Part shown: piece after piece, positions 8,975 to 38,939 of the stretch
How the letters are laid out: each line of letters opens with the position of its first letter
Numbering within the stretch: position 1 is the stretch's first letter
Origin: Anaerolineae bacterium
GTDB taxonomy: Bacteria > Chloroflexota > Anaerolineae > B4-G1 > SLSP01
Length of the DNA stretch: 64,000 bases
Direction: 5' to 3'
Assembly (NCBI GenBank): GCA_049975205.1
Contig: JBNGDL010000007.1
Coordinates: 36,952-100,951 of the forward strand
The notes under the pieces: generated by a model
What the model was told of the DNA's origin: nothing
The model's input: only the letters and a program-made list of their open reading frames with translations
Database searches by the model: none
Translations under genes and position numbers: made by a program

Positions 8975-9117
8975 GGTATCGGGCACATCTATGGGAGCGA
9001 TCGCCAGAGCCGCGGAGCCCCCGTAGTCTCCCCCTGAGGGGGCAAATCGCGTAGCTAAGACGCCGCCGCTTGCACTGCGGCTGCCACTAACCTGTCGTAC
9101 CATCAAGGAGAAGTCAA

Positions 9118-11417: not shown

Positions 11418-11491
11418 GTTGTCCTGAGTTGGGCACAAGGACATCAGAGGTACGAGGGTTGTGTAGTTAGTAGGCGAACAGGAGGATACGC

Positions 11492-12934
11492 GTGGAAAGA
11501 GACCGTAGGCCGAAGCCTCGGATTGGTTACTTCGGGAGTGGTCTAGCGGCCTATTGGCCCCAATTCCCTGATCTGAAGCCCGCCGTCCTCACGACGATGG
11601 ACCGGCACGTGGCGAAGTTGGAGGCGATGGGCTGCGAGGTCGTTCAGGGCGGGTTGGTCGATCGTCCTGAGCGCAGCATCGAGGTAGGAGAGCTGTTCGC
11701 CCGAGAACGGGTCGATCTCGTGATCGGCGAGATTATGACCTACACGGCCTCCCACATGCTTGTGCCGATCGCGCAGCGCAACATCGCGCCCTACCTGACC
11801 TTAGCCCTGCAGATGGTGCCCACCGTGGACTACGAGACGATGGGAACGGAGGACTTCACACTCATCGGGGCGGCGATGACGGCTCCTGAGGTGTCGTGCG
11901 CCTTCCAGCGGTGCGGACTGCCCTTCCACTGTGTCGTCGGGGGTGACTTCGAGGAGCGGGTCTGGGTCGAGGTCCAAGAATGGATTGAGGCTGCGGCGAC
12001 CAAGCGCGCGCTGATGAACAGCCGTCTTGGGTATCTAGGGCATTACTATCCGGGAATGCTCGACATGTACACCGATTTCACGATGCATCAGGGGCGTCTG
12101 GGAACGCATGTCGAGATCCTTGAGATGTGCGACCTGGCCGCGCGCGTCGAGGCGGTGACGGAGGATGAGATTGACGCCAAGGTGGCTGAGGCCGAGGCGA
12201 TGTTTCACATGCCGCCTCCGGGCTACGATGCCATTACTGAGCAGGTGAACCCGATGGATCTCCGATGGGCTGCGCAGGTAGCGTGCGCAGAGGATCGACT
12301 CGTTGCAGATTTCGACCTCGACGGGCTTGCCTATTACTATCGAGGCTGGGACAATAACCTCTACGAACGTATTGGTGCCTCGATGATCCTGGGCAACTCA
12401 ATATTGACCGCGCGCGGCATCCCCTGTGCGGGTGAGGCCGATCTGAAGACCTGTGTGGCGATGTTTATCCTGGAGCACTTCAACGCCGGGGGTTCCTTCT
12501 GTGAGCTCTATCTGCTGGACTTTGAGGGCGGTTTTGTGGTGGCCGGCCACGATGGGCCGGGCCACATTGGTATTGGGAACAAGAAACCGATTCTGCGCGG
12601 GATGAAGCTGTTCCACGGCAAAGCGGGCCACGGCGTCTCCGTTGAGTTCAACGTCAAGAACGGACCGGTCACCATGCTGGGGCTCACCCAGACCGGCGAT
12701 GGGCGCTTCAAGTTAGTGGCCGCGGAGGGTGAGTCGGTCCCTGGACCCATTCTCCAGATCGGGAACACAAACACGCGGGTGAAGTTCGGCGACATGAGCC
12801 CAGGTGAGTTTGGCCAGGCGTGGACGGAGACCGGCTCGACGCACCACTTCGCGCTGGGCGTGGGACACCAGCTGGGCGAGATTCGGAAGTTGGCCGAGTT
12901 ACTTGATATCGAGTTGGCAGTTGTAACCGGCTGA
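11492..12934 (+). CDS. L-arabinose isomerase-like / L-fucose isomerase superfamily sugar isomerase
   Basis: 480 aa. The N-terminal RIGYFGSGLAAYWPQFPDL and LGYLGHYYPGMLDMYTD blocks resemble the AraA family. The size matches AraA (about 500 aa). Confidence 0.6.
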   Translation: MERDRRPKPRIGYFGSGLAAYWPQFPDLKPAVLTTMDRHVAKLEAMGCEVVQGGLVDRPERSIEVGELFARERVDLVIGEIMTYTASHMLVPIAQRNIAPYLTLALQMVPTVDYETMGTEDFTLIGAAMTAPEVSCAFQRCGLPFHCVVGGDFEERVWVEVQEWIEAAATKRALMNSRLGYLGHYYPGMLDMYTDFTMHQGRLGTHVEILEMCDLAARVEAVTEDEIDAKVAEAEAMFHMPPPGYDAITEQVNPMDLRWAAQVACAEDRLVADFDLDGLAYYYRGWDNNLYERIGASMILGNSILTARGIPCAGEADLKTCVAMFILEHFNAGGSFCELYLLDFEGGFVVAGHDGPGHIGIGNKKPILRGMKLFHGKAGHGVSVEFNVKNGPVTMLGLTQTGDGRFKLVAAEGESVPGPILQIGNTNTRVKFGDMSPGEFGQAWTETGSTHHFALGVGHQLGEIRKLAELLDIELAVVTG

Positions 12935-22491: not shown

Positions 22492-22644
22492 AGGGTACCG
22501 TCTTCCCGGAGTTCCTTCGCCCCGACGACCCGCGGCTCACGTCGGCTCCGCTGTGACACTCAGGGAGATCGGTGATCGCGTGGCCGAAACAGGGTGCTCA
22601 GAGGCACATCAAGGCACCGCAACTCGAAAGCAAGGTGCGAGATC

Positions 22645-24330: not shown

Positions 24331-26208
24331 ATGCTGCAACCTAATACGCAACTTCAAAACCGGTATCTCATCCGCCGTCGCATTGGGGGAGGCGGGATGG
24401 GGACTGTGTACATCGCCGAAGACATGCGGCTACAGGGACGTCAGTGTGCCGTGAAGGAGATGTCACCTAGCGCCCTTGCGCCACAGGATCGAGAGTGGTC
24501 CATCGAGGCCTTCCGGCAGGAGGCTCAGATGCTCGCCCAGCTTCGCCATCCCGGCTTGACCGCCGTGACCGACTTCTTTGGGGAGGGTGGCAACTGGTAC
24601 CTCGTCATGGATTACGTCGAGGGCAAGACGCTGGCCACGAAGCTCTCGGAGGCACCAGAGGGGCGTTTCCCGGTCCAGGAGGCTCTGCGCATCGTTCGAC
24701 AGCTCTGTGACGTCCTCGAGTATCTTCACAACCAGCCATCACAGGTCATATTCCGCGATCTGAAGCCTGGGAATGTCATGGTCACCGCTGAGGGCCAGGT
24801 GAAGCTGATCGACTTCGGCATCGCGCGCTTCTTTAAGCCGGGCAAACAAGCCGACACCGCGCTACTCGGAACGCCGGGATATGCTGCGCCGGAGCAATAT
24901 GGTGGTCTGGGTCAGAGTGGGCCACAGACGGATATCTACAGCCTCGGCGTGCTCCTGTGTCACATGGTGACAGGCTTTGATCCCGTCAGTGCCATGAGTC
25001 CGTTCCCTATCCCTGACCCGACCTCGTTGATGCCGGGTATACCCCCGCGCATTGCCGCCACTATCGTTCGAGCGACCCAGTTGCGCCCGGAGCTCCGGTA
25101 TCGTAGTATCGCCGAGATGCGCGACGACCTCTTCCCACCCTCGTTCGTTCCCTATAAACCGCCTACGGAACGCCAGAGGACGCAGGTCATGCAGCCTTCC
25201 GCGCCGAGTGAGGCCGGTTCTGATCGGAAGCGGTTGCGGATGGCGCTGCTAGCGGGAGGGGCAGGTATCGCGTTGCTCGGCATCTGTGTTGGCCTTGGGG
25301 TGTTCGTCGTCTGGCCTTATCTCAGGCCCGACGCGACGGTCACGCCGACCGTGACGCCGACCCAAGCCGCTGCCACAGCCACATTCGAGGCCACGGCCAC
25401 GGTGGGTGCCACCGCCTCAGAGGAGTCGGTAACGCCAACAGAAACGCCGGCTGAGGTCGACACGGATACACCGCCGCCTCCCGTGGTAAAGGTTGATCAG
25501 GATAGCCTTGGGCTCTCGGTTCAGGGGAGGGCGCTGGCCGTCACCACGATCGGCTACGAGGACGGCGCCGACATTGTCGTGGTCGGGAGCATTCAGGGGG
25601 ATCAAGCTGGCACGCGAGACTTGGTCCAGGCACTGATCGACCACTACCGCTCGAATGAGGGCGACATACCGATGGGTGTAATGTACCACTTCGTGCCTTC
25701 CATCAACCCTGATGGCCTTACCTTGAACTCCCGCTACAACGCGCGCGACGTAGACCTCAACCGCAATTGGGGCTCTAGTGATTGGCTGCGCGACGCCGCC
25801 GTGCCGGGATACCCTGAGGGGAAGCCCGACGCGGGAGGCGCGGCACCCTTCTCGGAGCCCGAGACCCAGGCGCTGAGGGACTATCTGCTCTCTCTAAGGT
25901 CGTCTTCCGATAGGCTGCGCGTGATGATCCTACACTCCTCAGTGCGTCGTGACAAAGGTGAGGTCTATCCGGGCGGAGCCACGGCGCTGGACGCAGCACA
26001 GTCCTACGCCAACGTGACCGGCTATGACGTCGAGTATGCCTGGGCGGAGTATGTGACCTCCGGCGAGGCTGTGACCTGGTGTGAGGAGCAGTCTATCGTG
26101 TCCATTGATGTCGTCATTCCCGGATCGCAGACGCCGAGCACGAAGGTCATTGGAGATCGGACGCTGCTGCAGATCACGCTTGATGCCGTCAGGACCCTCG
26201 GTCAGTAA
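24331..26208 (+). CDS. Ser/Thr protein kinase - TM - extracellular M14 carboxypeptidase-like domain (zinc ligands substituted)
   Basis: 625 aa. Kinase motifs GGGGMGTVYIAED, CAVKEM, FRDLKPGNVMV, IDFGIARFF, GTPGYAAPEQ. One TM (LLAGGAGIALLGICVGLGVFVVW), then a T/P-rich linker. M14 blocks are VVVGSIQGDQAGT (in place of HxxE), SINPDGL, DVDLNRNWG and FSEPETQAL. Confidence 0.8.
   Translation: MLQPNTQLQNRYLIRRRIGGGGMGTVYIAEDMRLQGRQCAVKEMSPSALAPQDREWSIEAFRQEAQMLAQLRHPGLTAVTDFFGEGGNWYLVMDYVEGKTLATKLSEAPEGRFPVQEALRIVRQLCDVLEYLHNQPSQVIFRDLKPGNVMVTAEGQVKLIDFGIARFFKPGKQADTALLGTPGYAAPEQYGGLGQSGPQTDIYSLGVLLCHMVTGFDPVSAMSPFPIPDPTSLMPGIPPRIAATIVRATQLRPELRYRSIAEMRDDLFPPSFVPYKPPTERQRTQVMQPSAPSEAGSDRKRLRMALLAGGAGIALLGICVGLGVFVVWPYLRPDATVTPTVTPTQAAATATFEATATVGATASEESVTPTETPAEVDTDTPPPPVVKVDQDSLGLSVQGRALAVTTIGYEDGADIVVVGSIQGDQAGTRDLVQALIDHYRSNEGDIPMGVMYHFVPSINPDGLTLNSRYNARDVDLNRNWGSSDWLRDAAVPGYPEGKPDAGGAAPFSEPETQALRDYLLSLRSSSDRLRVMILHSSVRRDKGEVYPGGATALDAAQSYANVTGYDVEYAWAEYVTSGEAVTWCEEQSIVSIDVVIPGSQTPSTKVIGDRTLLQITLDAVRTLGQ
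25330..25482 (+). repeat. Low-complexity Thr/Pro/Ala-rich extracellular linker-coding tract (kinase)
   Basis: Encodes DATVTPTVTPTQAAATATFEATATVGATASEESVTPTETPAEVDTDTPPPP, between the TM helix and the M14-like domain. Confidence 0.6.
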
Positions 26209-27717: not shown

Positions 27718-30528
27718 ATGATTCGCTGTGAGCAGTGCGGCGCACTGAATCGCTCCGAGGCGCATTACTGCACGAAGTGCGGATCAGCGCTGGGGGCTGT
27801 GGCACCGGCTGATCCGCCCTCACTGTGTCCTCACTGCGGGGTCCCGCTGCGCCCAGAATCGCGTTTCTGCCCTGCCTGCGGTCGAACCGTCGCAGGCGTG
27901 ACGGTGGCCCAGGATGGGAGTATCCACGAGCAGAAGATCGTTGTTCGTTGGCCTGGCGGCGAGTCCGAGGAGCACGCTCTCGACAAGTCGGTGGTACACA
28001 TCGGGCGGGCACCGGACAACGACATCGTCCTCAACTTCCCCACGGTCTCGGGACACCATCTCGCACTTGACGTCACGCCAAGTGACGTGAGGGTCACGGA
28101 CCTCAACAGCACGAACGGGACGATGCTGAAAGGACGCTTGATCACACCCCGTTCTCCGCATCCTTGGAGAGAGGGCGAGACCCTGCGTGTGGGCGATGTC
28201 TGGGGTAACTCCATCAGCATTGTGCTGAAGGGCGCGGCGGCCCCGGCTCTCCATACCTATCCGCTGGGTATGCACCGCCTCGCGCAGCACGCCCGCATCC
28301 TGATTGGGCGCGATCCGGCGAGCCAGATCACGCTTGATCATCCCACGGTCTCGCGCCGCCACGCCGAGATCGTGCGACAGGAGGGCGGGCACGCCATCCG
28401 CGATCTGGGCAGCGTCAATGGCACCTTTGTGAACGGGCAGCGGGTCCTAGATGTCGTCCGGCTGCAGGAGGGCGACGTCATCCAGTTGGGACCGTACAAG
28501 ATGGTCTACGACGGGGACGCTGACCGGCTCTCGACCTCGGTGAGCCAGGGCCACCGATTGGATGCGATCGGGCTCGGCGTAGAGGTCGGTGGTGGTCGCA
28601 TGATCCTGCAGGACGTCTCGCTCTCCGTACAGGGAGGCGAGTTCGCGGCGCTGGTCGGCGGCAGCGGTGCGGGCAAGAGCACGCTCCTCAAGGCGATGAA
28701 CGGCTTCCGACCCGCGACCCACGGTCGGATGCTGATCGATGGGGAGCTGCTTTATCCAAATCTGGCGGCCTATCGGACCTTGATGGGCTATGTGCCACAG
28801 GATGACATCATCCACAAGACGCTGCCGGTGCGGAGCGCGCTGTGGTACTCGGCGCGGCTACGTCTGCCTGATGCGACGTCGGCCGAGATCGAGGAGCGGA
28901 TCGACCGTGTCCTCGAGTTGGTGGAGCTGACAGCGCACCAGCACAAGCCGGTTCGGGTGCTGAGCGGCGGGCAACGCAAGCGCGTCAGCATCGCGGTGGA
29001 GCTCCTGGCAGATCCCGATCTCCTCTTCCTGGACGAGCCGACCTCCGGATTGGATCCCGGGCTCGAGAAGAAGATGATGTACGATCTCAACCGGCTGGCC
29101 GATCAAGGACGGACGGTGGTGCTGGTCACGCACGCCACCGCGAACATCGAGCAATGCGATCACGTCGGCTTCTTGGAGCGAGGGAACCTCGCCTACTACG
29201 GCCCTCCCAATGAGGCTATCGCCTTCTTCAAGGCAAGAGACTTTGCTGATATCTACCTGAAGCTGTCAGAACCGGTCGACGGTTTCAGAGGAGCTCTTCC
29301 CTCGGAACTGAGGCCCTATTGGGACGCGATTCAGGCGCGACTACCCGAGGAGGCAAGAGGTCAATCGCCTGGGGTCTGTACTGCAGGGCTTCTCTGGGCG
29401 CAACACTACCGCGCAAGCGACCTTCACCAACGTTACGTCGTGAACAGGCAGGCGCGCTTGGACGCAGCTCGGCCTGGGATGGAAGCGGCGCCTGCGCGCC
29501 GCAAGCGGACTCGAGACTCGGTTCTGCGTCAGCTTGTTGTGCTTGTCCGGCGCCAGTTCGATCTGATCCGTCACGACCTGCGCACGCTGTTCATCCTGCT
29601 TTTGATGATGCCGCTCATTGCCGTTTTGTTTATGCTGGTAAGTGACAAGACGGCGTTCGTCGGGGGCGCGGCGACGGAGGCAAGTCTCAAACAGGAGCTT
29701 CTGCAGGCCCTCAATGTGACTCGGGAGGATGATCTGTCCTCCGTGGTGCTCGACGGGGAGGATCTGGAGCGATCTGCCGACTACATGCCCTACGCCGATG
29801 CGAAGACGCTGGTCACCATGCTCGGGCTTGCCTTGACGCAGGCGGGCACCTTCGGGGCCGCCTATGAGATAGTAAAAGAACGCCCGATCTTCCGTCGCGA
29901 ACGGTCCGTCAACCTCCGGGTGGGGGCGTACGTATTGTCCAAGGCTTTGGTGCTCGGCGTCTTTGCGGTCATCCAGGTAGCCAGCGTGCTCGGTGTGCTG
30001 GCGCTGAAGCTGGATCTGGGCATCGATCCTATTCTGGATATCTTTGCCTTCGGCGCCGCGGAGCTCTTCGTGACACTGCTTATCGCGGTTGTCGCCAGCA
30101 TTATGTTCGGCTTGTTCATCTCGGCCGTTGTGCCTAGCCAGGACGTGGTGCTCTACATCATCCTGATCCAGCTCTTTACCCAGATTATCCTCTCGGGCAC
30201 ACTCTTCCCACTGGGGGACAATCCGGCGTCCAAGCTCGTGCCGTCTTACTGGACGATGGATGCGATGGGTGCTACCGTGGACCTGCGGAAGTTGAACGAC
30301 GAGGGCCGGGTCTGCAAGATATGGGAACAGAAGGATGTTCCCACGGCGGAGGGCACGCGGATGACGCAACGGGGGATCGTGTGCGAGACGGCGGCGATCA
30401 AGAACCTAGACCTGCCCTGGAAGCACGACGCGGAGCATCTCTTGACAGCGTGGGGCGCCCTCGGTGCACAGGCCCTGGTTTGGATGGCTGCTACCATGGT
30501 GGTGCAATCGAGAGTCAAAGGCGACTAG
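27718..30528 (+). CDS. ZnR-ZnR-FHA-FHA-ABC ATPase-ABC2 permease fusion (Rv1747-like FHA-regulated ABC exporter)
   Basis: 936 aa. Zn ribbons CEQCGALNRSEAHYCTKCG and CPHCGVPLRPESRFCPACG. FHA1 is VVHIGRAPDNDIVLNFPTVSGHHLAL...NSTNGT. FHA2 is ILIGRDPASQITLDHPTVSRRHAEI...GSVNGT. Walker A GGSGAGKST, signature LSGGQRKR, Walker B LLFLDEPTSGLD. Multi-TM ABC-2-type C-terminal half. Confidence 0.85.
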   Translation: MIRCEQCGALNRSEAHYCTKCGSALGAVAPADPPSLCPHCGVPLRPESRFCPACGRTVAGVTVAQDGSIHEQKIVVRWPGGESEEHALDKSVVHIGRAPDNDIVLNFPTVSGHHLALDVTPSDVRVTDLNSTNGTMLKGRLITPRSPHPWREGETLRVGDVWGNSISIVLKGAAAPALHTYPLGMHRLAQHARILIGRDPASQITLDHPTVSRRHAEIVRQEGGHAIRDLGSVNGTFVNGQRVLDVVRLQEGDVIQLGPYKMVYDGDADRLSTSVSQGHRLDAIGLGVEVGGGRMILQDVSLSVQGGEFAALVGGSGAGKSTLLKAMNGFRPATHGRMLIDGELLYPNLAAYRTLMGYVPQDDIIHKTLPVRSALWYSARLRLPDATSAEIEERIDRVLELVELTAHQHKPVRVLSGGQRKRVSIAVELLADPDLLFLDEPTSGLDPGLEKKMMYDLNRLADQGRTVVLVTHATANIEQCDHVGFLERGNLAYYGPPNEAIAFFKARDFADIYLKLSEPVDGFRGALPSELRPYWDAIQARLPEEARGQSPGVCTAGLLWAQHYRASDLHQRYVVNRQARLDAARPGMEAAPARRKRTRDSVLRQLVVLVRRQFDLIRHDLRTLFILLLMMPLIAVLFMLVSDKTAFVGGAATEASLKQELLQALNVTREDDLSSVVLDGEDLERSADYMPYADAKTLVTMLGLALTQAGTFGAAYEIVKERPIFRRERSVNLRVGAYVLSKALVLGVFAVIQVASVLGVLALKLDLGIDPILDIFAFGAAELFVTLLIAVVASIMFGLFISAVVPSQDVVLYIILIQLFTQIILSGTLFPLGDNPASKLVPSYWTMDAMGATVDLRKLNDEGRVCKIWEQKDVPTAEGTRMTQRGIVCETAAIKNLDLPWKHDAEHLLTAWGALGAQALVWMAATMVVQSRVKGD

Positions 30529-30553
30529 GGACAGACGCAACGGGAGAAATCGG

Positions 30554-31189
30554 ATGATGCGACGTCGATGGGCGTGGAGTGTCGCACTGATCAGTGTGCT
30601 GTTGTCCACGGGGTGCGAGGCCGAACCTGTGACCCCCGCGACGCCCCGTCCCACGCTAACGGCAACGCCAACGGCGACAGAAAGGGCAACGGTCACCCCG
30701 ACACCTTCGCCGACAGCGGTGCCTACAGTGACGCCTGCGCCCCGGGCGACCTCGACGGCAAAGCCGACATCCACTGCCACGGCGACGTCAACGCCCCGAC
30801 CGAGGGCGCCCTCGCCGGAGTCCTTGGCCACGCAGTATCCTCAGCTTGCCCCAATCTTGAACAATACAGAGGTGAGCACGGTCTACAAGGAGCTCGCTGT
30901 GGCCTGGGAGGCGCAAGGACAGCAAGGCGTGCTCGCCGTGGCGCGGGACCGGGGCCTCTTGACGCCTGAGGGGGACATTCGTGCGACGCTTGTACTGGAC
31001 ACGGAGGATTCAACAGCTACGGTTGCGCGGTTGCAGTCATTGGGGATAGAGGTGCTGGGGACCCAGGGCGAGCGGGTCCAGATCGCCATACCCCAGGGCC
31101 TCCTGATGGCGGGTGCGAATGACCCCGGTAGCGCCCTGAATCAGCTGAGCGGCCTGGAGCACGTCGTAGGTGTCGAACCGCCGGGCTGA
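30554..31189 (+). CDS. Lipoprotein with Thr/Pro-rich linker and a domain paralogous to the pro-like N-domain of the downstream S8 protease
   Basis: ATG at 30554 (MMRRRWAWSVALISVLLSTGC, lipobox-like STGC); the ORF extends to 30464 but that would overlap the ABC gene. The C-terminal 120 aa align with residues of about 60-185 of the 31615-33969 product (YPQLA, TVYKE, RGLLTP.G, TLVLDT, G.EV, QL..L.HV). Confidence 0.65.
   Translation: MMRRRWAWSVALISVLLSTGCEAEPVTPATPRPTLTATPTATERATVTPTPSPTAVPTVTPAPRATSTAKPTSTATATSTPRPRAPSPESLATQYPQLAPILNNTEVSTVYKELAVAWEAQGQQGVLAVARDRGLLTPEGDIRATLVLDTEDSTATVARLQSLGIEVLGTQGERVQIAIPQGLLMAGANDPGSALNQLSGLEHVVGVEPPG
30629..30815 (+). repeat. Low-complexity Thr/Pro/Ala-rich linker-coding tract (lipoprotein)
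   Basis: Encodes TPATPRPTLTATPTATERATVTPTPSPTAVPTVTPAPRATSTAKPTSTATATSTPRPRAPSP. The ACG/CCG/GCG-rich nucleotide repeats also generate a spurious G/V/A-rich antisense ORF. Confidence 0.6.
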
Positions 31190-31209
31190 GCTGTGCTGAG
31201 GAGGAGGCG

Positions 31210-31305
31210 ATGACGCTGGCACCGGGAACGCTCCTGCAGCAACGCTACCGCATCATGTCGTTGTTGGGGGTGATCCCGAGTTCTCTTGTCCCGATATCGC
31301 TCTGA
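31210..31305 (+). pseudogene. 31-codon stub of a Ser/Thr kinase N-terminus (truncated before the glycine-rich loop)
   Basis: Strong RBS GAGGAGG at 31201-31207, then ATG. MTLAPGTLLQQRYRIMSLLG matches the start of the intact kinase (MLQPNTQLQNRYLIRRRIG). The frame then diverges (VIPSSLVPISL) and stops at 31303-31305. No kinase core follows in any frame. Confidence 0.5.
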
Positions 31306-31614
31306 GCCAGTCCCCCCCGACGCCGGTCAGCGGATTCGGGAAGATATGGTGCACAGAATCGAATTCCGTCAGGGCCTGGGGGACGCAACCGAGGTCGAAC
31401 ACGGCTTTGGGGCGACTCTCCAGATCTTTGAGCAAGGGGCCGTGTTTCGTACGGACACCGGCACGACCTACGTTCTTCGCGACAACGGTACCCGGATAAG
31501 TCGGCAATGTCAGGGCTCGGTCTGGACCAGGTTGCAGCGGTATTGGGCTTGGTGGGAAGTGGTTGTTCTTTTCATCTGAGTATTGAGGGTTGTGCATAGC
31601 CAGAGGCTGAAGAT

Positions 31615-33969
31615 ATGCGTGGACAACGACGACGGCTGATTAGGACATTGTTGGTCAGTGGCGGGATTCTATTGGTTCTTGGCATCCTTGTAGGGGTCGC
31701 GCTGCTCACGAATGCGTTTTCGTGGTCTTCCGAGCGGACGCGCCGGGAGCTTCTGGCCGATGGCCCTGGAATCGAGCTGACACCGCCGATAGCGATCGAC
31801 GACCTCGCGGAGGCTTATCCTCAACTGGCTTCCGTGCTGAGTGACCCGGAACTGGCGACGGTGTACAAGGAGTTCGTGGTGGCGTATCAGGAGGGCGGGG
31901 TCGAGGCTGCTTCCGAGCTGGCGAAGAGCCGGGGCTTACTCACCCCCGATGGGCAGCATCTGCGCGTGACGCTTGTCCTCGACACTGACGCGCCACAGCC
32001 GCTCGTTGATCAGTTGGAAGGTGTTGGTGTGGAGGTGGTCAGTGCATTTCGTGATCGTGTCAATATCGCCGTGCCGGTCGCCCTGATCGAGCAGGCGATG
32101 CAATCGGAGGATGTCGATAGCGTCTTCCAGCAACTCACCGAGCTTCAGCACGTGATCGCAGTGCGTTTGCCAGGTCAACGGCAGTCCGACCAGCAGACGG
32201 AGCAGGGCGAGGGGGTCCGCGCGGTTGGCGCGGAAGTTTGGCACCAGGCAGGTTTCACCGGTGCTGGGCTGCGGGTCGGCATACTCGATTTGGGTTTTGC
32301 AGGGTACCGACGCCTCCTGGGGCGTGAGCTTCCTGACAATGTCGAGGTGGAGACTTTCGGATGGATTGACGACAAGGAGGTCCACGGGACTGCCTGTGCC
32401 GAGATTGTGCACGAGCTCGCGCCCGATGCGACCCTATATCTCGCCTGGTATGATGGCAGTGATGCCGCAATGGGGGAGGCTGTCGCATGGCTGCGAGGTC
32501 ATGAAGTCGACATCATCAGCCATTCAGCCGGGAGCGTGCTCAGCCCGCGAGATGGCACGGGTTGGGACGCAGAGTTGGTTGATGAAACTGCCGCGACGGG
32601 TGTGCTTTGGGTAAACTCTGCGGGCAATGAAGCAGATGTCCATCACCGGGCGACCTTCATCGATCAGGACGGTGATGGCTATCATGATTTTGAACTCGAC
32701 ACGTCGCTCCTTCCAATCTACAACGAGGGGGATCTGCGCGTCTTTCTTGTCTGGCACGAAGATTGGGAACGGCCCACCGAGGATCTTGAGCTGTTTGTTT
32801 TCGATGCCGACGGCAACGTGCTGGCCTCCTCTGAAGATCTGCAGGATGGGGGCTTGGGACAGCAACCCGCCGAATGGGTGGTTATGCAGTCCTCGGCGTC
32901 GGTGGTCTATGCTGCCGTCTACGCCTATGATGTCGATCGCGCGATGGGCTTTGATCTTTTTGCGATCGGTCCCGGGGTCGAGATCAAGGACCCGGTCCCG
33001 GCCTATAGCGTAAACTCCCCTGGTGACGCCGTTGGGGCTTTGACCGTCGGGGCAGTGGACTGGGAGGATGACCGCCTCGCCCGCTACAGCTCTCAGGGGC
33101 CGACTACTGACGAGCGCCTGAAGCCCGAGATCTCGGGTCCGACGAGGATTTCGGGCATTACCTATGGGGCCCACGGCTTTGATGGAACGTCGGCGTCGGC
33201 GCCGCACGTGGCCGGTGTGGCTGCACTGGTGTGGCAAGCTTACCCGAGCTACACGCGACAGGAGCTGACCGATCTGCTTCTGACGTCGGCCAAGGATCTG
33301 GGACCGGCCGGGCCTGACACCGGTTACGGGTTTGGACGCCTGCAGCTGCCCCCGCCGCCCAATGCTGCGGCGGTCATCGCCAGCCCCGAAGCGCCCGCCG
33401 ACGAAGCCACTGAGACGCCGACCACAGACGTCACGCCAACGCCGGTCGCCTTTGCATTACCTGCTCCTGAGAATGACACGGATGACCGGCGGCAGAGGCC
33501 TCTCGTCTTAGTGGGGCTTCTCGTGGGAGGCCTGAGCATTGGGGGCACGGGGCTCCTTGCCATCGGCGGCTACCTTCTTCTGAGCGAACTAAGGACCCGG
33601 TCGACGCCATCATCAGAGCCGCCGAGGCCTGCTCCGCCTTTGGCAGTGGCGCCGGCGCGGCCGATGCGGCCTTCAGAGAGGCCCGCCGAGGGGCCCTCGC
33701 TGCCATCCACAGAGCGATGGGAGACAGACCAGGGCGACTTGAGGACGCCGGATGCTCATTCTGCCAAGCGGCCGACATCCAAGTCAGAATCTGAGACACA
33801 CTGTCCTTCCTGCGGGGCTCCGTTGCGATCGGGGGCTCGGTTCTGCCCCGGGTGTGGCACGCGTCTGGCGATCGCTTCGAATCCGGCTTTCTGCCGTCAC
33901 TGTGGTGCCGCGTTGCGAGAGGACAGCCGGTTCTGCCCGAAGTGCGGCCTGCCGGTCGATCGGCGCTGA
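31615..33969 (+). CDS. Membrane-anchored subtilisin-like (S8) serine protease with N-terminal pro-like domain, second TM and cytoplasmic double zinc-ribbon tail
   Basis: 784 aa. N-terminal TM (LLVSGGILLVLGILVGVALL). Catalytic triad contexts VGILDLGF (Asp), HGTACAEIV (His), GTSASAPHVAG (Ser), with oxyanion NSAGNE. TM2 is LVLVGLLVGGLSIGGTGLLAIGGYLLL. Tail motifs CPSCGAPLRSGARFCPGCG and CRHCGAALREDSRFCPKCG. Confidence 0.85.
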   Translation: MRGQRRRLIRTLLVSGGILLVLGILVGVALLTNAFSWSSERTRRELLADGPGIELTPPIAIDDLAEAYPQLASVLSDPELATVYKEFVVAYQEGGVEAASELAKSRGLLTPDGQHLRVTLVLDTDAPQPLVDQLEGVGVEVVSAFRDRVNIAVPVALIEQAMQSEDVDSVFQQLTELQHVIAVRLPGQRQSDQQTEQGEGVRAVGAEVWHQAGFTGAGLRVGILDLGFAGYRRLLGRELPDNVEVETFGWIDDKEVHGTACAEIVHELAPDATLYLAWYDGSDAAMGEAVAWLRGHEVDIISHSAGSVLSPRDGTGWDAELVDETAATGVLWVNSAGNEADVHHRATFIDQDGDGYHDFELDTSLLPIYNEGDLRVFLVWHEDWERPTEDLELFVFDADGNVLASSEDLQDGGLGQQPAEWVVMQSSASVVYAAVYAYDVDRAMGFDLFAIGPGVEIKDPVPAYSVNSPGDAVGALTVGAVDWEDDRLARYSSQGPTTDERLKPEISGPTRISGITYGAHGFDGTSASAPHVAGVAALVWQAYPSYTRQELTDLLLTSAKDLGPAGPDTGYGFGRLQLPPPPNAAAVIASPEAPADEATETPTTDVTPTPVAFALPAPENDTDDRRQRPLVLVGLLVGGLSIGGTGLLAIGGYLLLSELRTRSTPSSEPPRPAPPLAVAPARPMRPSERPAEGPSLPSTERWETDQGDLRTPDAHSAKRPTSKSESETHCPSCGAPLRSGARFCPGCGTRLAIASNPAFCRHCGAALREDSRFCPKCGLPVDRR

Positions 33970-34138: not shown

Positions 34139-35887
34139 TTGGTGCTCTTGGGGCTCTTGTTTGTCTTGACCACCGTCGTCTTGGCAAGGCGACTTCGCAG
34201 ACGACGTGTCTCTTCGAAGACGACGCCGGAGGCAACCTCTGCAGCCGCGACACGCCAGGGTGGGGGGACCAAGCAGCTAGCGGGGACGCCTGAAGCGTCG
34301 CATCCCGATCTAAGCGGCGGCTTTTCAGCACTGGCTGAAGGTACTGTGCTTAACAACCGCTACGTGATACGTGAGGTCCGTGGATCAAGCGGCAGCCACG
34401 CGGTCTACCTGGCTGAGGATCTCTACCCGGTCAAGATGTGTCCGGCATGCCGTGGCGTGGCATCAGACGCGGATGAGATTCGGTGCACATATTGTGGGGC
34501 CGATCTGTCCGAGATCTCCCCAGCTCAGCTCAGGTATCTCGTGCAGGAGCGGGACGATCCTGCGGCGTTCAGCTCTGAAGGCCAGTTACTCCAGCTTGAC
34601 CTGAGGCATCCGGGCCTGTTGCTGCCGGTTGCGGTCTTCGTGGAAGCTCCTCACGGTCCCAAGCGGGCTTATCGTGTTATGCCCGAGTTCTCCCCGCCGC
34701 TTGTGAAGACCGTGCCCGGTCCACGTGACTTGGCCCAGACGCTCTCGTGGGGTGTCTCGTTGGCGAAGGCTCTCGCTTATCTGCATCAGCACGATGTTGC
34801 CCTTGGTTCTGTGGATATCGACCACGTCTCGGTTGATGGCGACAGAGCATGGTGGTCGGGGCTGACCCGCGTCACGATCTTGTCCGCTGAGGAGCGTGCC
34901 TCTATCCGTGAGGCGCACGCCGTCGATGTGCAGAAGCTGGCGACCTTGTTGGTACAGCTGGGGACAGGAAGGGCTAACGCGGCTCTGCCCGAGAGCTGGC
35001 CTGATGCTCTGAACCAGTTGATCACCAAGGCACACCGTGAGCCTGCGAAGGTGAGCGCTGCGGAGTTTGCTGTTATGCTGGAGCACCTGTTGGAACAAGT
35101 GCGGGAGCCTAAGCGCGTGACGCTGGTGGTCGGGCAGTGCACGGATGTGGGTTCCATTCGCTCTGTCAATGAGGATACTCTTCTCTCGGTCGACCTCGGG
35201 GCGATCCATCGCCTGCGAGATCAGGCGGCGGGGCTTTTTCTCGTCGCCGATGGTATGGGTGGGCACGACGCAGGGGATGTGGCCAGCCAGTTGACGGCTC
35301 GGACAATTGGGGAGCTGACAACAGAGGAAGGGACCCGCCCCATTTCCTCCCGTCAGCTGTTCTCCGACCCGGCAGGGTGGCTGTTGACTGCGGTCCGGCA
35401 GGCCAACCAGGCGGTATATGAGGAGCGGATGGCTGCGAAATCTGACATGGGCACGACGCTCGTCGCGGCGCTCGTGATGGGTGCGCGGGCGACAATTGCT
35501 AACGTGGGAGACAGCCGCTGTTATCTGCTCAGCAACCGTGGCATCACCCAGGTCACGGTGGACCACTCGCTGGTGGAGCGGCTGGTGGCGACTGGTCAGA
35601 TCACGCGTGAGGAGGCGGCTGTGCATCCTCAGCGTCACGTCATCTACCGCGTGATCGGCGATAGGCCGGAGGTGGAGATCGATCTCTTCGAGCAACCGAT
35701 GCAGGTCGACGAAGCGTTGTTGCTCTGCTCCGACGGGTTGAGCGGCATGGTGTCTGACGAGACGATCTGGCGGATCTGGATGGCTGCAGCCTCTCCCCAA
35801 GATGCTTGCATCCGCTTGGTCGCGGCTGCGAATAGGGCCGGCGGCGAGGATAACATCACCGCCGTGATCGTTCAAGTGCGGACCTGA
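34139..35887 (+). CDS. Zinc-ribbon pseudokinase fused to PP2C phosphatase (paralog of 22645-24243), possible N-terminal membrane anchor
   Basis: 582 aa from a TTG at 34139; alternative starts are GTG 34142 and GTG 34346. Kinase-like LNNRYVIREV..AVYLAED, insert MCPACRG...RCTYCG, alphaC-like EGQLLQLDLRHPGL. The catalytic loop is replaced by ALGSVDIDHV and there is no DFG. The PP2C is intact: SIRSVNEDTLL, ADGMGGHDAGDVAS, VGDSRCYLL, CSDGLSGMV, GGEDNITAVIV. Confidence 0.75.
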   Translation: MVLLGLLFVLTTVVLARRLRRRRVSSKTTPEATSAAATRQGGGTKQLAGTPEASHPDLSGGFSALAEGTVLNNRYVIREVRGSSGSHAVYLAEDLYPVKMCPACRGVASDADEIRCTYCGADLSEISPAQLRYLVQERDDPAAFSSEGQLLQLDLRHPGLLLPVAVFVEAPHGPKRAYRVMPEFSPPLVKTVPGPRDLAQTLSWGVSLAKALAYLHQHDVALGSVDIDHVSVDGDRAWWSGLTRVTILSAEERASIREAHAVDVQKLATLLVQLGTGRANAALPESWPDALNQLITKAHREPAKVSAAEFAVMLEHLLEQVREPKRVTLVVGQCTDVGSIRSVNEDTLLSVDLGAIHRLRDQAAGLFLVADGMGGHDAGDVASQLTARTIGELTTEEGTRPISSRQLFSDPAGWLLTAVRQANQAVYEERMAAKSDMGTTLVAALVMGARATIANVGDSRCYLLSNRGITQVTVDHSLVERLVATGQITREEAAVHPQRHVIYRVIGDRPEVEIDLFEQPMQVDEALLLCSDGLSGMVSDETIWRIWMAAASPQDACIRLVAAANRAGGEDNITAVIVQVRT

Positions 35888-35930
35888 CCGCCGGTGCTGA
35901 ATCAAGACAGAAGACATGGAGGCAGTTGAG

Positions 35931-37913
35931 ATGCGCATACGGCGTGTGCTGTCGACCTTCATCTGTCTCGCATCCCTGCTGTCGGCGATGCCGACGGCAG
36001 CACAGGAGGGCGTGCCCGAGCCTCCGGTCGTGGACATCCTTGGGACGCCGGATACCCGCTCCCAGCCCCCAAACGCTCATCTCTATGTGTCCGTCGTAGA
36101 CCGGCTCACAGGCCGTGCGTTTCTCGATCTGGAGCCAGCGAATTTCGCGGCCCAGGTCTCTGAGGTAGACGTTGAGACCGCAGTCGAGATAGACACGACC
36201 GGACTGGCTGTGGTCATGGTGATCGACCGTGGCGGGATAGCCCAGCGGGGTGATCCCAGGATCGGTCGGAGCGTTGACCTTGCATCCGCGTTGCTCGAGA
36301 TGCTGACGGTGGACGGGACTGCCACGGCGGATATGGTGGCGCTCATCGGCATCCGCGGCGAGGAACAAGGCGGACTCACGCCAGTCATCAACTTCACAGA
36401 CTACGATCCGAACGTAATCAGCAACGCCTTTGATGGGCTGCGTACAGAGGTTGTGAACGAAACGACGCCCCTTTATGACGGGCTCGACAGAGCGATAGCG
36501 TGGATCACCGATAACCCCGATCCTCAGATACGCGAGAAACTGGTACATCGACGGCGGATCATCCTGGTCTTCTCCGACGGGATAGATCGGGACTTCAGTG
36601 ACGAGTCCCACGAGACTCTGATCGTCAATCAAGCTGCGGAGAACGATATCCTCATCTATGCTGTCCAAATGAGTGACCGGGGTCGGACGGGTGATTCCAT
36701 AAGCCTAAGTGCCATGGCCACACAGACTCAGGGAGCGCTGTTCGTGCACAGTCCGGAGAGTCACGAGGAGGTCCTCGCCCGTCTGCAGGATATCACGACC
36801 CAACGGGAGGCCTACCGCCTGACCTTTCCTCTGATCCGGCCTCAAGGCCTGTACCAGGTGGAGATTCAGGTGCTTGATACGCCAGGTGGGTCAGCTTCGG
36901 ATGCTGAGAGCATCACGTCTCACCTGGAGAGGCCAGGTATCGCGTGGGTCGCACCTCCGGAGCTTCAGATTGTCGTGCCCTATTCCGAGACAGCGCTGGG
37001 GTTCCTGCCCACATCGATCCCGTTGAGCGTCCAGATGAGTTTCAAGGATGGCGCTTCGCGAGAGCCGGAGCAGGTCTCGTACTTCGCGAACGAGCAGCGC
37101 ATTGGTCTTACAAGTGCCGGTCCGGACTACGCTTTTGAATGGGACGTCGCGGATCTCGAGACGCCGGCGACCGAGCCGGTCACGCGAACCTTCACCCTGA
37201 TTGCTCGCGCGACCGATCCCTATCTCGAGGAGCCTATTGCGACGGAGCCGCTGGACATCCAGATTACGTGGGAGCAGAAAGAGGAGACGCTGAAGACGGT
37301 CACAGAGGATGTCGCCAGCAGCGTGGCGCTGAACTGGTGGGTCCTCCCACTCTTCGGCGTGCTGGCAGTGGGTATTGTCGTGCTCGCCGTGCTGCTGATT
37401 CGGACCCGAGGTCAGGTGGCGAAGCAGGTCGTGAAGGGTACCACGGCTGTCGTGAGAGGGGTCACACAACGGTTAGGCGCTGGCGGTGGGTTGCCCGCTG
37501 CACGGGGGAAGCTTGTCGTGACGCGAGGACCTCGCACGGGGACTGAGTTCCGTCTGGCAACGAGCTTGGTGCGGGTCGGGCGAGATCCTGAGTACAGCGA
37601 CTTCGCACTGCACGACCAATACGTGTCCAACCCTCACTTCTCCGTGATCGAGGAGGGAGGGCAGTTCTATATCCGGGATGAGGAGAGTACCAACCAGACC
37701 CGTCTTAATGGCGCAGTCGTCCCTGCGAATCAGCGGATCGTTCTGCCCCCGGATGCCGTCATCGATGCAGGCCAGACGCGTCTCCAGTTTCGTCGGTTGG
37801 GTGGCGAGACGCGGCTCATCAGCGCTCGCGCACAGAAGACGGAGCGAGGCAGCTCGGGGCAAGACGAGGCCAATGCGCCAACGCAGCGAGCAGGCCCAGG
37901 TTTCCGCCCGTAG
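35931..37913 (+). CDS. Secreted vWA-like domain - TM - cytoplasmic FHA domain protein
   Basis: ATG at 35931 has GGAGG 8 nt upstream; the ORF opens at 35916. Signal peptide MRIRRVLSTFICLASLLSAMPTAAQ. vWA-like strands VVMVIDRGGIA (MIDAS DxSxS not conserved) and IILVFSDGIDRDF. TM is WWVLPLFGVLAVGIVVLAVLLI. FHA is LVRVGRDPEYSDFALHDQYVSNPHFSV...ESTNQTRLNG. Confidence 0.75.
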   Translation: MRIRRVLSTFICLASLLSAMPTAAQEGVPEPPVVDILGTPDTRSQPPNAHLYVSVVDRLTGRAFLDLEPANFAAQVSEVDVETAVEIDTTGLAVVMVIDRGGIAQRGDPRIGRSVDLASALLEMLTVDGTATADMVALIGIRGEEQGGLTPVINFTDYDPNVISNAFDGLRTEVVNETTPLYDGLDRAIAWITDNPDPQIREKLVHRRRIILVFSDGIDRDFSDESHETLIVNQAAENDILIYAVQMSDRGRTGDSISLSAMATQTQGALFVHSPESHEEVLARLQDITTQREAYRLTFPLIRPQGLYQVEIQVLDTPGGSASDAESITSHLERPGIAWVAPPELQIVVPYSETALGFLPTSIPLSVQMSFKDGASREPEQVSYFANEQRIGLTSAGPDYAFEWDVADLETPATEPVTRTFTLIARATDPYLEEPIATEPLDIQITWEQKEETLKTVTEDVASSVALNWWVLPLFGVLAVGIVVLAVLLIRTRGQVAKQVVKGTTAVVRGVTQRLGAGGGLPAARGKLVVTRGPRTGTEFRLATSLVRVGRDPEYSDFALHDQYVSNPHFSVIEEGGQFYIRDEESTNQTRLNGAVVPANQRIVLPPDAVIDAGQTRLQFRRLGGETRLISARAQKTERGSSGQDEANAPTQRAGPGFRP

Positions 37914-38006: not shown

Positions 38007-38939
38007 ATGCCAATCTGTCCGAATTGTGGAGCACAACAGCCGGAGGGAGCTACCTTCTGCGACGAGTGTGGCGCGGCTTTAAGACGCCCCGCGGTCTCCT
38101 ATCCTGCGCCCTCGTCCAAAGACCAGGGTCGAACCGTTGTAGGCTCCAGCATGGCCGCAGGGCCGCGCCTCTGCCCGGTCTGTGGTGCGCGTAACGCTTC
38201 ACAAGACCCTTTCTGCACGAACTGCGGGGCCTCGCTCAGCGAGGAGCCCGCTCCCGCCCAGCGCGGACCCTGTGCGATGGATGGGGTGACGGTCATAGCA
38301 CCCGCTGGGGCAGGGGGGCGACCGGAGAAGCTCGGTCCTACTCCCGGTGCGGGTTCTGTTCAGGGTGGTTTGGTCTGTGGTCAGTGCGGTGCGTTGCTGG
38401 AGCCCGACAGTGCCTTCTGTGATATGTGTGGGGCGCCGGTGAGTCGTGTGTCGCCGCCCTCCGGTGACGAGACCGCGCTGTCGTCCCCTCCCGCCTCGGA
38501 TCAGGCTCCAGTCTACGAACCGACCGTCGCATCACAGGAGCGGGGATGGCAGGCGTCGGCGGGAGGAGCGCTGCAAGCGCCAACGCCCTCCGACGACGCG
38601 CTACGCCCGAAGCCTCAGGGTGCGCTGGTGGTGCGCGGGAGCAACGTCACGCTCGATCTTGTGTCAGGGACGCTGGTATGGGTGATCGGTCGCGAGGATC
38701 CACTGAGTGGTATCTTCCCGGACATCGATCTTACAGACCACGGGGGGGACGAGGGTGGTGTCTCCCGCAAGCACGCACGGATTCAGGTACAGGGCCAGCG
38801 GTTCTACGTCGAGGACCTGAATAGCACGAACCATACTTACCTGAACCGCGAACTGCTGACGCCGGGATACACCTATCCGCTCCGGGATGGCGATGAGTTG
38901 TGCTTTGGACGCGTGAAAGTGATCTTCAGGTCTTCCTAG
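38007..38939 (+). CDS. Triple zinc-ribbon - FHA domain protein
   Basis: 310 aa, GAGGAG RBS. CPNCGAQQPEGATFCDECG, CPVCGARNASQDPFCTNCG and CGQCGALLEPDSAFCDMCG. C-terminal FHA is VWVIGRED...GGVSRKHARIQV...DLNSTNHTYLN. Confidence 0.8.
   Translation: MPICPNCGAQQPEGATFCDECGAALRRPAVSYPAPSSKDQGRTVVGSSMAAGPRLCPVCGARNASQDPFCTNCGASLSEEPAPAQRGPCAMDGVTVIAPAGAGGRPEKLGPTPGAGSVQGGLVCGQCGALLEPDSAFCDMCGAPVSRVSPPSGDETALSSPPASDQAPVYEPTVASQERGWQASAGGALQAPTPSDDALRPKPQGALVVRGSNVTLDLVSGTLVWVIGREDPLSGIFPDIDLTDHGGDEGGVSRKHARIQVQGQRFYVEDLNSTNHTYLNRELLTPGYTYPLRDGDELCFGRVKVIFRSS

Follow-up and report, generated by a model that had tools for sequence, protein, structure and literature searches.

We examined a 64,000-nucleotide stretch of contig JBNGDL010000007.1 (GenBank assembly GCA_049975205.1, positions 36,952 to 100,951 of the forward strand) from an uncultured Anaerolineae bacterium; this stretch is called the window, and features of this genome are numbered within it. 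The window carries a gene for a membrane-tethered serine protease of the S8 (subtilisin) family, in which the ectodomain is followed by a second transmembrane segment (TM2) and a tail that ends in two zinc ribbons (Table 1). The main new fact is that FHA domains take the place of the ribbons in a sister lineage. A membrane subtilase with an inner ribbon or FHA tail is a real, conserved and undescribed variant of the membrane-tethered subtilases. We hold, with slightly better than even confidence and on the strength of sequence comparison, that the tail would dock the surface protease into an assembly of kinase, phosphatase and FHA proteins, in which phosphorylation inside the cell would govern proteolysis outside it.

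The layout proposed for the protein in a first-pass annotation (an N-terminal transmembrane segment, TM1; a pro-like domain; an S8 domain; a stalk; TM2; and two ribbons) was confirmed by the open reading frame (ORF), Pfam matches, hydropathy, conservation and a structural model. The model was built with AlphaFold2 on 30 family members and has a mean predicted local distance difference test score (pLDDT) of 70.1. Five of residues 1–11, ahead of TM1, are Lys or Arg, the model has a long N-terminal helix at residues 2–48, and a hydrophobic N-terminal segment is present in 117 of the 120 best relatives. Kyte-Doolittle averages over 19-residue windows exceed 1.5 only at residues 7–39 (peak 2.73) and 629–652 (peak 2.09), the latter in agreement with the earlier claim that the second hydrophobic segment spans the membrane. 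Several small-xxx-small (GxxxG-like) spacings occur at residues 634–652.

Residues 60–186 matched no Pfam family in the Pfam scan. In position and modelled secondary structure they are propeptide-like: the model contains a βαββαβ unit at residues 115–184, and the domain is covered when Foldseek aligns the model with Csp proteases or with unprocessed pro-subtilisin E. The Peptidase_S8 profile (PF00082) matches the protease with E = 4.8e-32 (111.9 bits against a cut-off of 21.8). D225, H257, N334/N338 and S526, with N338 as the oxyanion Asn, are invariant in 30 aligned family members; the Asp/His/Ser triad is intact, as had been described, and the protease should therefore be active. The order Asp-His-Ser with the oxyanion Asn, the profile score above threshold and the subtilisin fold (Foldseek E from 1e-10 to 1e-12 and TM(target) 0.70–0.77 against subtilisins) place the protein in the S8 family, as a predicted catalytically competent S8A-type subtilase.

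Within TM2, G644 is invariant in 30 family sequences, and G639, G644 and G646 are invariant in the 14 closest relatives. We infer that this Gly-rich segment is built for packing against another membrane helix. The tail beyond it comprises about 128 residues (657–784), a correction to the length of about 120 first given; the two ribbons reported in it are present. Zn_Ribbon_1 scores 58.7 bits (cut-off 25) and DZR, whose match spans residues 730–778, scores 44.7 bits (cut-off 27.3), which identifies a double ribbon of the PF12773/PF13240 type with predicted zinc binding. At least 90% of the aligned sequences retain the ribbon Cys residues and the R-F that flanks them, and the modelled ribbons consist of four short hairpins.

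A search of 5.8 billion proteins, in which 8000 candidates were scored, gave 382 matches to the protease at E ≤ 0.001. S8 and zinc-ribbon families were both detected in 117 of the 120 best relatives, and the remaining three look truncated; the full combination of TM1, S8 domain, TM2 and at least one ribbon likewise occurs in 117 of the 120 best matches. The relatives come from metagenome-assembled genomes (MAGs) of Anaerolineae and Chloroflexi and are labelled just "S8 family serine peptidase" or "zinc-ribbon domain-containing protein". The protease is thus a member of a large unnamed family of Chloroflexota, mostly Anaerolineae. Most of the 117 family proteins have two ribbons (101 proteins), with one in 11, three in 4 and four in 1. 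The linker between TM2 and the ribbons is hypervariable in sequence across the family. Measured by script in the 117 tails, it is 21–122 residues long (median 51) and consists of 31.5% Pro, 13.4% Arg, 12.5% Ala, 7.1% Ser and 4.6% Thr. Thr is entirely absent from 15 of the tails.

Distant orthologs were examined together with their surrounding DNA (loci L002 and so on). The ortholog at L010 (9833–12163, + strand) has the same order of TM1, prodomain, S8 domain, stalk, TM2 and a poly-Pro segment, followed by an FHA domain at residues 700–766 (E = 1.9e-22, Pfam). The L018 protein is apparently FHA-tailed like that of L010 but is broken by a masked run of N. Both PF00082 and PF00498 were found in 107 of the 120 best matches to the L010 protein, many of them about 900 residues long, and some of the FHA-tailed relatives (P0121–P0226) bear the JGI name "FHA protein/subtilisin family serine protease". 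The protease of genome G049 (L141:8354–11167, − strand) has two tail FHA domains, at residues 762–839 and 865–928. Other tails are reduced. Two Caldilineaceae orthologs end five basic residues past TM2 and have a bare anchor, and an Ardenticatenaceae form and two tandem copies of lipoprotein type at L025 have no TM2. The L025 copies (L025:6818–9343 and 9449–11983, + strand), from an Anaerolineae MAG, have an extra C-terminal beta domain and lie directly downstream of an FHA-FHA-ABC gene.

We built a FastTree phylogeny of 93 ectodomains (every third ribbon- or FHA-tailed protein, all odd ones and the locus proteins), a quick tree in which the deep forks are resolved only in part. The FHA-tailed proteins form one clade (39 rows, SH-like support 96) that is sister to a ribbon-tailed clade (44 rows, support 100). 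Deeper branches are occupied by ribbon-tailed forms from Anaerolineaceae and Chloroflexia and by the Caldilineaceae forms with a bare anchor. The simplest reading is that the ribbons are ancestral, that FHA was substituted for them once and that ribbons were lost at least once. Ribbon-tailed and FHA-tailed queries, searched against 61 related genomes, matched the same 30 genomes at identical places. The tails at 27 examined loci comprised 19 with ribbons, 2 with FHA (both from one neighbouring family) and 6 cut off by a contig end or stop. No searched genome showed both the ribbon and the FHA form, and an FHA-tailed paralog was not found in the query's own genome with this query; the other notable S8 protein there, of 885 residues on contig C14, is without TM2.

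FHA domains are cytoplasmic readers of phospho-Thr. The presence of an FHA domain at the same position of the same single-copy gene is therefore the strongest evidence that the tail is cytoplasmic and serves Ser/Thr phospho-signalling, and the exchange of FHA for ribbons suggests a docking role for the ribbons, that is, that the double zinc ribbon is a docking module of phospho-signalling assemblies. The charge distribution around TM2 follows the positive-inside bias, with a mean of 3.25 Lys and Arg in the 10 residues after TM2 as against 0.28 in the 12 residues before it (117 family proteins). Three other proteins of the cluster (ABC ATPase, FHA adaptor and DZR-TM protein) carry ribbons of the same type at N-termini without a signal sequence, and N-terminal ribbon pairs ahead of a transmembrane helix are interpreted as intracellular in the relevant passages of a published account (PMC3355149). 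Charge bias, ribbons shared with cytoplasmic or N-in neighbours and FHA replacement together strongly indicate a cytoplasmic tail and an outer ectodomain, which upholds the topology first proposed.

The protease gene lies in a run of genes on the same strand that extends from a PP2C gene at 22594 through a metallophosphoesterase gene at 38940 (Table 1). As the first-pass annotation had remarked, the ribbon type of the tail recurs in cluster proteins, namely those encoded at 26220, 27718 and 38007 (Pfam). The protease ribbons (residues 729–781) are 53% identical to those of the ABC protein, and orthologs of the FHA-FHA-ABC gene adjoin the protease gene in L008, L012, L013, L025, L119, L120, L121, L124 and L127.

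Table 1. Features of the membrane protease and of the genes around it, in window coordinates.
Feature	Position	Strand	Basis
Membrane S8 protease gene with predicted cytoplasmic double zinc-ribbon tail	31615..33969	+	784 aa; ORF list, Pfam, architecture in 117/120 best relatives
TM1, residues ~12–34, basic N-terminus ahead	31648..31716	+	Hydropathy peak 2.73; signal anchor or long signal peptide
Propeptide-like domain, residues ~60–186, helical part then βαββαβ unit	31792..32172	+	Model secondary structure, Foldseek
S8 catalytic domain, residues ~198–580	32206..33354	+	PF00082, invariant columns, Foldseek to subtilisins
All-beta jelly-roll-like insert, residues ~340–460, between oxyanion Asn and catalytic Ser	32632..32994	+	Strands 342–451 in model; Csp-like
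Pro/Thr/Ala-rich stalk, predicted extracellular, residues 581–628	33355..33498	+	Alignment; pLDDT <50 at 584–629
TM2, residues 629–656, Gly-rich	33499..33582	+	Hydropathy peak 2.09; helix 629–662 in model
Disordered Pro/Ser/Arg-rich linker, predicted cytoplasmic, residues 657–726	33583..33792	+	pLDDT <50 at 662–725; hypervariable across family
SLPSTERWE motif, residues 695–703, T699, candidate phospho-Thr site/FHA ligand	33697..33723	+	Alignment of 14 closest proteins
Zinc ribbon 1, CxxC...CxxC, residues 727–751	33793..33867	+	Zn_ribbon_3 / Zn_Ribbon_1 / DZR (Pfam); Cys columns at least 90% conserved
Zinc ribbon 2, CxxC...CxxC, residues 757–781	33883..33957	+	Zn_Ribbon_1 759–780 (Pfam); Cys columns at least 90% conserved
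PP2C	22594	+	Pfam
Ser/Thr kinase with C-terminal M14 carboxypeptidase-like domain, sole kinase gene of the cluster	24331..26208	+	Pfam
DZR-TM-extracytoplasmic domain protein, 290 aa	26220..27092	+	Pfam, translation; orthologs in L003, L121, L122, L123, L128
DZR-FHA-FHA-ABC exporter (ATPase + ABC-2 permease)	27718..30528	+	Pfam; recurrent protease neighbour
Lipoprotein-like gene, 211 aa from ATG 30554, no Pfam/NCBIfam family	30554..31189	+	ORF list; homology to protease prodomain
PP2C phosphatase with N-terminal kinase-like/CxxC region, directly downstream of protease	34139..35887	+	Pfam; syntenic in L118–L121, L123, L128
Signal peptide-VWA-TM-FHA membrane protein	35916..37913	+	Pfam; syntenic at 58–62% identity in 6 same-genus loci
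Three zinc ribbons + FHA, predicted cytoplasmic adaptor	38007..38939	+	Pfam; syntenic in L119, L120, L122, L123, L128
Metallophosphoesterase	38940	+	Pfam

Kinase, FHA, PP2C or FHA-ABC genes lie in the flanks of 8 of the 13 loci that have a TM2-bearing ortholog and usable flanks (L003, L005, L007, L008, L009, L012, L013, L014) and at 11 of the 12 loci taken from relatives, counts that overstate independence because the loci share kinship. The query's own genome has only 7 Pkinase matches in 3.6 Mb, so that one would be expected in about 4% of random 20-kb stretches. The kinase/FHA linkage spans several families and both tail types; a gene for a two-FHA protein lies downstream of the FHA-tailed G049 copy, and two kinase genes lie upstream of it past one DUF362 gene. 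The ribbons are also found in front of kinases (L014, L017), one PP2C (L005) and one VWA protein (L014), and 5 of the approximately 14 ribbon-bearing ORFs in the query's own genome are near kinase/FHA genes, 4 of these 5 in the present cluster. At L122 (G003:C2:18500–38400), from the same genus, the protease gene (approximately 8837–11161, − strand) is interrupted by an internal TAA stop; of its usual neighbours, the fetched G003 stretch retains the DZR-TM, ribbon-FHA and metallophosphoesterase genes but yielded no ABC, lipoprotein, PP2C or VWA-FHA gene. This pattern looks like the co-decay of a functional unit. Conserved neighbourhood and FHA exchange both support the connection to phospho-signalling that had been drawn for this protease.

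The tail had also been described as Ser/Thr-rich and as a candidate phospho-acceptor or FHA ligand. The linker of the window protease (residues 663–726) has 10 Ser and 5 Thr among 64 residues; the first of these descriptions does not fit the Pro/Arg-rich linkers of the family as a whole. A Thr followed at +3 by a hydrophobic residue, within a disordered cytoplasmic stretch, agrees with the ligand preference of FHA domains. A sequence that follows this rule occurs in the query's subclade only, in a segment of pLDDT <50: among the 14 closest proteins T699 is present in 14, L696 in 13, P697 in 10, Q or E at position 700 in 12 and W702 in 10. The resulting LPxT[QE]xW patch is the sole strongly conserved patch of the linker in this genus-level subclade. 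A stricter form of the pattern occurs in 15 of the 117 tails as against 1.4 expected from per-tail shuffles (maximum 5 in 200 shuffles), an excess inflated by shared ancestry. Wherever PP2C, VWA-TM-FHA and ribbon-FHA genes follow downstream (7 loci: the window, L118–L121, L123 and L128), the patch occurs too, and it is absent from all 4 complete loci without those genes, a co-occurrence that may reflect a single event.

What survives of the phospho-acceptor proposal is T699 itself, invariant in the 14 closest proteins. It is a lineage-specific addition to the tail and a good candidate phospho-site, to which we give somewhat less than even odds of being an acceptor. The proposal fails for the family as a whole, since family linkers are neither rich in Ser/Thr nor conserved at any residue. 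Across the family the conserved part of the tail is a folded module (ribbons or FHA), and this suggests a tail that docks or reads, not one that accepts phosphate.

The kinase encoded at 24331–26208 has a cytoplasmic juxtamembrane segment (residues ~275–288) that reads KPPTERQRTQVMQ and contains PPTE and TQVM patches. Its M14-type orthologs have TQVM in G021 and TLVM in G018, which with three sequences amounts to a lead only. The TQVM patch of the kinase resembles the T[QE]xW patch of the protease tail. The kinases beside proteases of other clades and the kinases inserted at L119 and L120 have no consistent motif. A reported preference of mycobacterial PknA/PknB for Thr-Gln sites was given no weight. 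Complex prediction for the cytoplasmic FHA region of the VWA-TM-FHA protein (residues 500–640) and the protease tail (residues 663–784) gave a score of 0.00 in both runs, which were made without controls and weigh neither way.

Immediately upstream of the protease, the product of the gene at 30554–31189 starts with a signal peptide that ends in a Cys lipobox-like site; behind it come a Pro/Thr linker and a propeptide-like domain that stands alone. This domain is 42% identical to protease residues 62–187 (E = 8e-27) and ends where the prodomain ends. The gene is kept immediately upstream of the protease gene in 5 same-genus loci at 51–69% identity, and about 20 stand-alone relatives of the domain, all named "hypothetical", were found. 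The lipoprotein model (pLDDT 71.3) aligns with the Tk-SP N-propeptide at Z 7.4 (VIA-align) and with the PCSK9, Tk-subtilisin, CspB, PC1/3 and subtilisin propeptides at Z 4.6–5.8, values to be set beside Z 5–6.4 for unrelated folds of the same topology; Foldseek gave no match to the PDB at E ≤ 0.001. Free propeptides and I9-type inhibitors act on subtilisins, and by analogy the lipoprotein is likely a membrane-tethered trans-inhibitor or folding helper of the protease. A family-wide partnership was considered and rejected: matches at distant loci hit the prodomain of the protease itself, and the gene is conserved only in the query's genus-level subclade.

These results can be assembled into a working scheme. 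The subtilase would be displayed on the outer face of the cytoplasmic membrane. It would be synthesized with the N-terminal membrane segment and the propeptide-like domain, and autoprocessing of the prodomain would leave the mature enzyme tethered by the Gly-rich TM2 alone. The linker and the two Cys4 ribbons would dock it into the surrounding Hanks-kinase/PP2C/FHA assembly, with the FHA-FHA-ABC exporter and the VWA-TM-FHA protein as candidate partners, and Thr phosphorylation in the cytoplasm would set where, when or with which partners the protease works outside. In the sister lineages the tail FHA domains would read phospho-Thr directly, as alternative docking modules; in the query's genus T699 would be the likeliest kinase target and FHA ligand. 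The protease's own prodomain and the prodomain copy on the lipoprotein would probably act as inhibitors or chaperones on the outside. A more specific version, which we consider improbable in its entirety, is a phospho-switchable ectoprotease: the kinase would phosphorylate T699, or a sister-lineage tail FHA domain would read the phospho-Thr of a partner; assembly through TM2 with the VWA-TM-FHA and FHA-FHA-ABC proteins would free the catalytic domain from its prodomain or the lipoprotein copy; and the peptides released might feed back to the carboxypeptidase-like sensor of the kinase.

Several observations weigh against docking into a signalling assembly. TM2 of the window protease is closely preceded by three basic residues, unlike the family average. 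The existence of bare-anchor Caldilineaceae forms and of TM2-less Ardenticatenaceae and L025 forms means that the protease core needs no tail. No signalling neighbour was seen at 5 of the 13 loci, namely L002, L011 and L015, which were covered by tblastn with window proteins only, and the FHA-tailed L010 and L018, which were covered by Pfam on part of their ORFs. Pfam covered 75 of the 127 ORFs of the distant loci; those of L002, L011, L015 and L025 and the outer ORFs of other loci were covered by tblastn. In the query's own genome 9 of the approximately 14 ribbon-bearing ORFs lie away from kinase/FHA genes, so that the ribbon is not specific to the signalling network, and the ribbon is a domain without an established partner. 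The correlation of the Thr patch with the downstream FHA genes is confounded by phylogeny, being essentially one genus against others. Because the Thr motif occurs in one subclade only and 15 of the 117 tails lack Thr, a phospho-acceptor role cannot be a family-wide function.

Some of the same facts would follow if the tail merely anchored the protein, with TM2, the basic stretch and the compact ribbons fixing topology or retention and the kinase and FHA neighbours being co-regulated envelope genes with no physical coupling to the protease. The Caldilineaceae orthologs that make do with TM2 and a five-residue basic tail fit this explanation, as do the hypervariable linker and the wide occurrence of ribbon-TM-ectodomain proteins outside kinase contexts, as described in the relevant passages of PMC3355149. 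We nevertheless consider it fairly unlikely. A passive plug would hardly account for a phospho-Thr reader that replaced the ribbons and persisted throughout a large radiation, and the conservation of the ribbon Cys columns and flanking R-F, the invariant Thr motif of the query's subclade and the recurrent linkage to signalling genes all speak against it. A sub-case of docking into the signalling assembly is that the protease serves the adjacent FHA-FHA-ABC exporter as a maturation or processing partner, its tail docking on the ribbons or FHA domains of the exporter. Lantibiotic systems offer a parallel, in that subtilases process the peptides they export. In the window and in the nine loci listed above for orthologs of the ABC gene, that gene is found immediately or a short way upstream of the protease, the ribbons of the two proteins are alike at the identity already given, and Rv1747/PknF shows that FHA-regulated ABC exporters exist (PMC3138270, in its account of that pair). 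Against this, the flanks of five loci (L003, L005, L007, L009, L014) contain kinases without an ABC gene, we noticed no gene for a precursor peptide, and the ABC-2 type permease differs from the peptide-exporter type; a dedicated processing role is, in our estimate, distinctly unlikely.

Signalling in the opposite direction would make the protein a one-component system, in which the ectodomain senses a substrate or is consumed by it and the ribbons are a nucleic-acid-binding output at the membrane or after release. Zinc ribbons often bind nucleic acid, and the YARHG paper starts a similar hypothesis for ribbon-TM-ectodomain proteins in its passages on them (PMC3355149). The FHA exchange favours contacts between proteins and phosphoproteins instead, this ribbon occurs in fusion with an ABC ATPase, FHA adaptors, a PP2C and kinases, proteins that do not resemble DNA-binding outputs, and no cleavage site or release mechanism is evident, all of which makes this direction very improbable. 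A last alternative would place the tail outside the cell by taking the LPxT patch as a sortase-type sorting signal. The patch does resemble LPXT and the genome has two sortase genes. In a sortase sorting signal LPXTG comes first, ahead of a hydrophobic segment and finally a basic C-terminus. In the protease the order is wrong, as the motif comes only after TM2 and the basic stretch and has folded Cys4 ribbons behind it, the residue after the Thr is Q or E and not G, and charge bias and FHA exchange place the tail inside; we rejected this alternative on the order of elements, despite the two sortase genes, and regard it as almost certainly wrong.

We compared the protease, read as a docked ectoprotease, with known systems. 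Mycosins (MycP) are extracytoplasmic S8A proteases with a C-terminal transmembrane helix; they are part of a membrane machine and have a short tail with no ribbon or FHA. The best curated NCBIfam model for the protease is T7SS_mycosin (TIGR03921), which matches residues 442–640, up to the start of TM2. The score is, however, 74.2 bits against a cut-off of 278.75, and the protease differs in its extra jelly-roll insert and its kinase/FHA context. The Pfam-scanned neighbours of the protease include no ESX components, but kinase, PP2C, FHA, ABC and VWA genes instead. Mycosin identity was rejected on the sub-cut-off TIGR03921 score and the lack of nearby ESX genes.

Furin, PC7 and SKI-1/S1P consist of a prodomain, an S8 domain, a single transmembrane segment and a cytoplasmic tail, and phosphorylation of the furin tail governs the site of action. 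The window protease shares with these convertases the order of prodomain, S8 domain, TM and tail, and its mature form would be tethered by TM2 alone, as is also the case in mycosins; the fold matches of the lipoprotein prodomain copy include the PCSK9 and PC1/3 prodomains. The convertases differ in being S8B kexin-type enzymes with a P domain, in having tails with sorting motifs rather than a folded ribbon or FHA, and in belonging to another domain of life with another class of kinase. No kexin/furin P (homo-B) domain is among the Pfam matches of the protease at E up to 0.01, and the extra beta domain of the protease lies inside the catalytic domain. The best solved folds for the ectodomain are CspB, CspA and CspC (Foldseek E from 8e-17 to 5e-14 over ~480–580 aligned columns), in which a prodomain and a subtilase are combined with an inserted jelly-roll; classical subtilisins rank next. 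Identity to the Csp proteins is, however, 14–18%, TM(query) is 0.29–0.34, and the NCBIfam CspBA model scores 29 bits against 1250. The Csp proteins are, moreover, soluble clostridial spore germination proteins that lack transmembrane helices and tails.

A paradigm on the signalling side is Rv1747/PknF of M. tuberculosis, an FHA-FHA-ABC exporter controlled by phospho-Thr in a disordered linker (as set out in the parts of PMC3138270 on that linker). The gene two places upstream of the protease has the FHA-FHA-ABC layout, and the tail of the G049 protease is likewise FHA-FHA. In the present case the effector is an ectoprotease rather than a transporter, the window protease has ribbons, and the present system is known from sequence alone. 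An FHA-FHA-trypsin of Bacteroides thetaiotaomicron, listed in a 2008 survey of prokaryotic serine proteases (PMC2605481), is the nearest precedent found for phospho-Thr readers fused to a serine protease; it belongs to family S1, has N-terminal FHA domains and is a single uncharacterised example. In its passages on subtilisins the same survey lists no FHA or ribbon partner (PMC2605481). The DZR-TM-YARHG proteins have a cytoplasmic PF12773/PF13240/PF13248 ribbon pair, one transmembrane segment and an extracellular domain, according to the passages of PMC3355149 that describe them; their ribbons are N-terminal and their ectodomain is non-enzymatic, whereas the ribbons here are C-terminal and stand behind a protease and an N-terminal membrane segment. 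A 2020 eLife paper on conflict systems (PMC7159879) contains FHA, ribbons and subtilisin in unrelated architectures, in the passages where they occur, and was set aside as not relevant.

Bacterial Ser/Thr kinase signalling controls cytoplasmic enzymes, transporters and secretion machines through FHA domains. The literature searched, with subscription journals mostly outside its scope, contained no subtilase with a cytoplasmic ribbon or FHA tail and no control of an extracellular protease by a transmembrane tail. The double-zinc-ribbon module is widespread and functionally blank, and two large sister families with ribbons or FHA behind the same tethered subtilase form a natural experiment on its function. 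The case is testable, its components being a single invariant Thr, a few FHA domains, one kinase and a candidate trans-inhibitor, and the system could reveal how inside events and outside proteolysis are coupled in a monoderm Chloroflexota cell.

Four further observations concern the locus. Short contigs from an RNA library, 95–99% alike, fall at 30488–30819, 31648–31855, 31884–32091, 33318–33475 and 33801–33950; they come from one RNA-library run, set beside one DNA run of the same study, and were not counted as expression, carry-over of DNA being possible. The ribbons of the proteins encoded at 26220 and 38007 have sub-cut-off NCBIfam matches to the "4-Cys prefix domain" (a kinase prefix) and to PRK14559, a Ser/Thr phosphatase with N-terminal ribbons, weak matches from which it follows that ribbon prefixes on kinases and phosphatases are already recognised by curators. 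The pairing of a zinc-finger-FHA protein with a VWA protein (38007 and 35916) is reminiscent of ArnA/ArnB of Sulfolobus. Finally, a 426-bp gap separates the lipoprotein and protease genes (window 31190–31614), and in G011 and G002 (L119 and L120) about 4.5 kb with a Ser/Thr kinase gene stands in that gap, to which L120 adds a ribbon-bearing gene.

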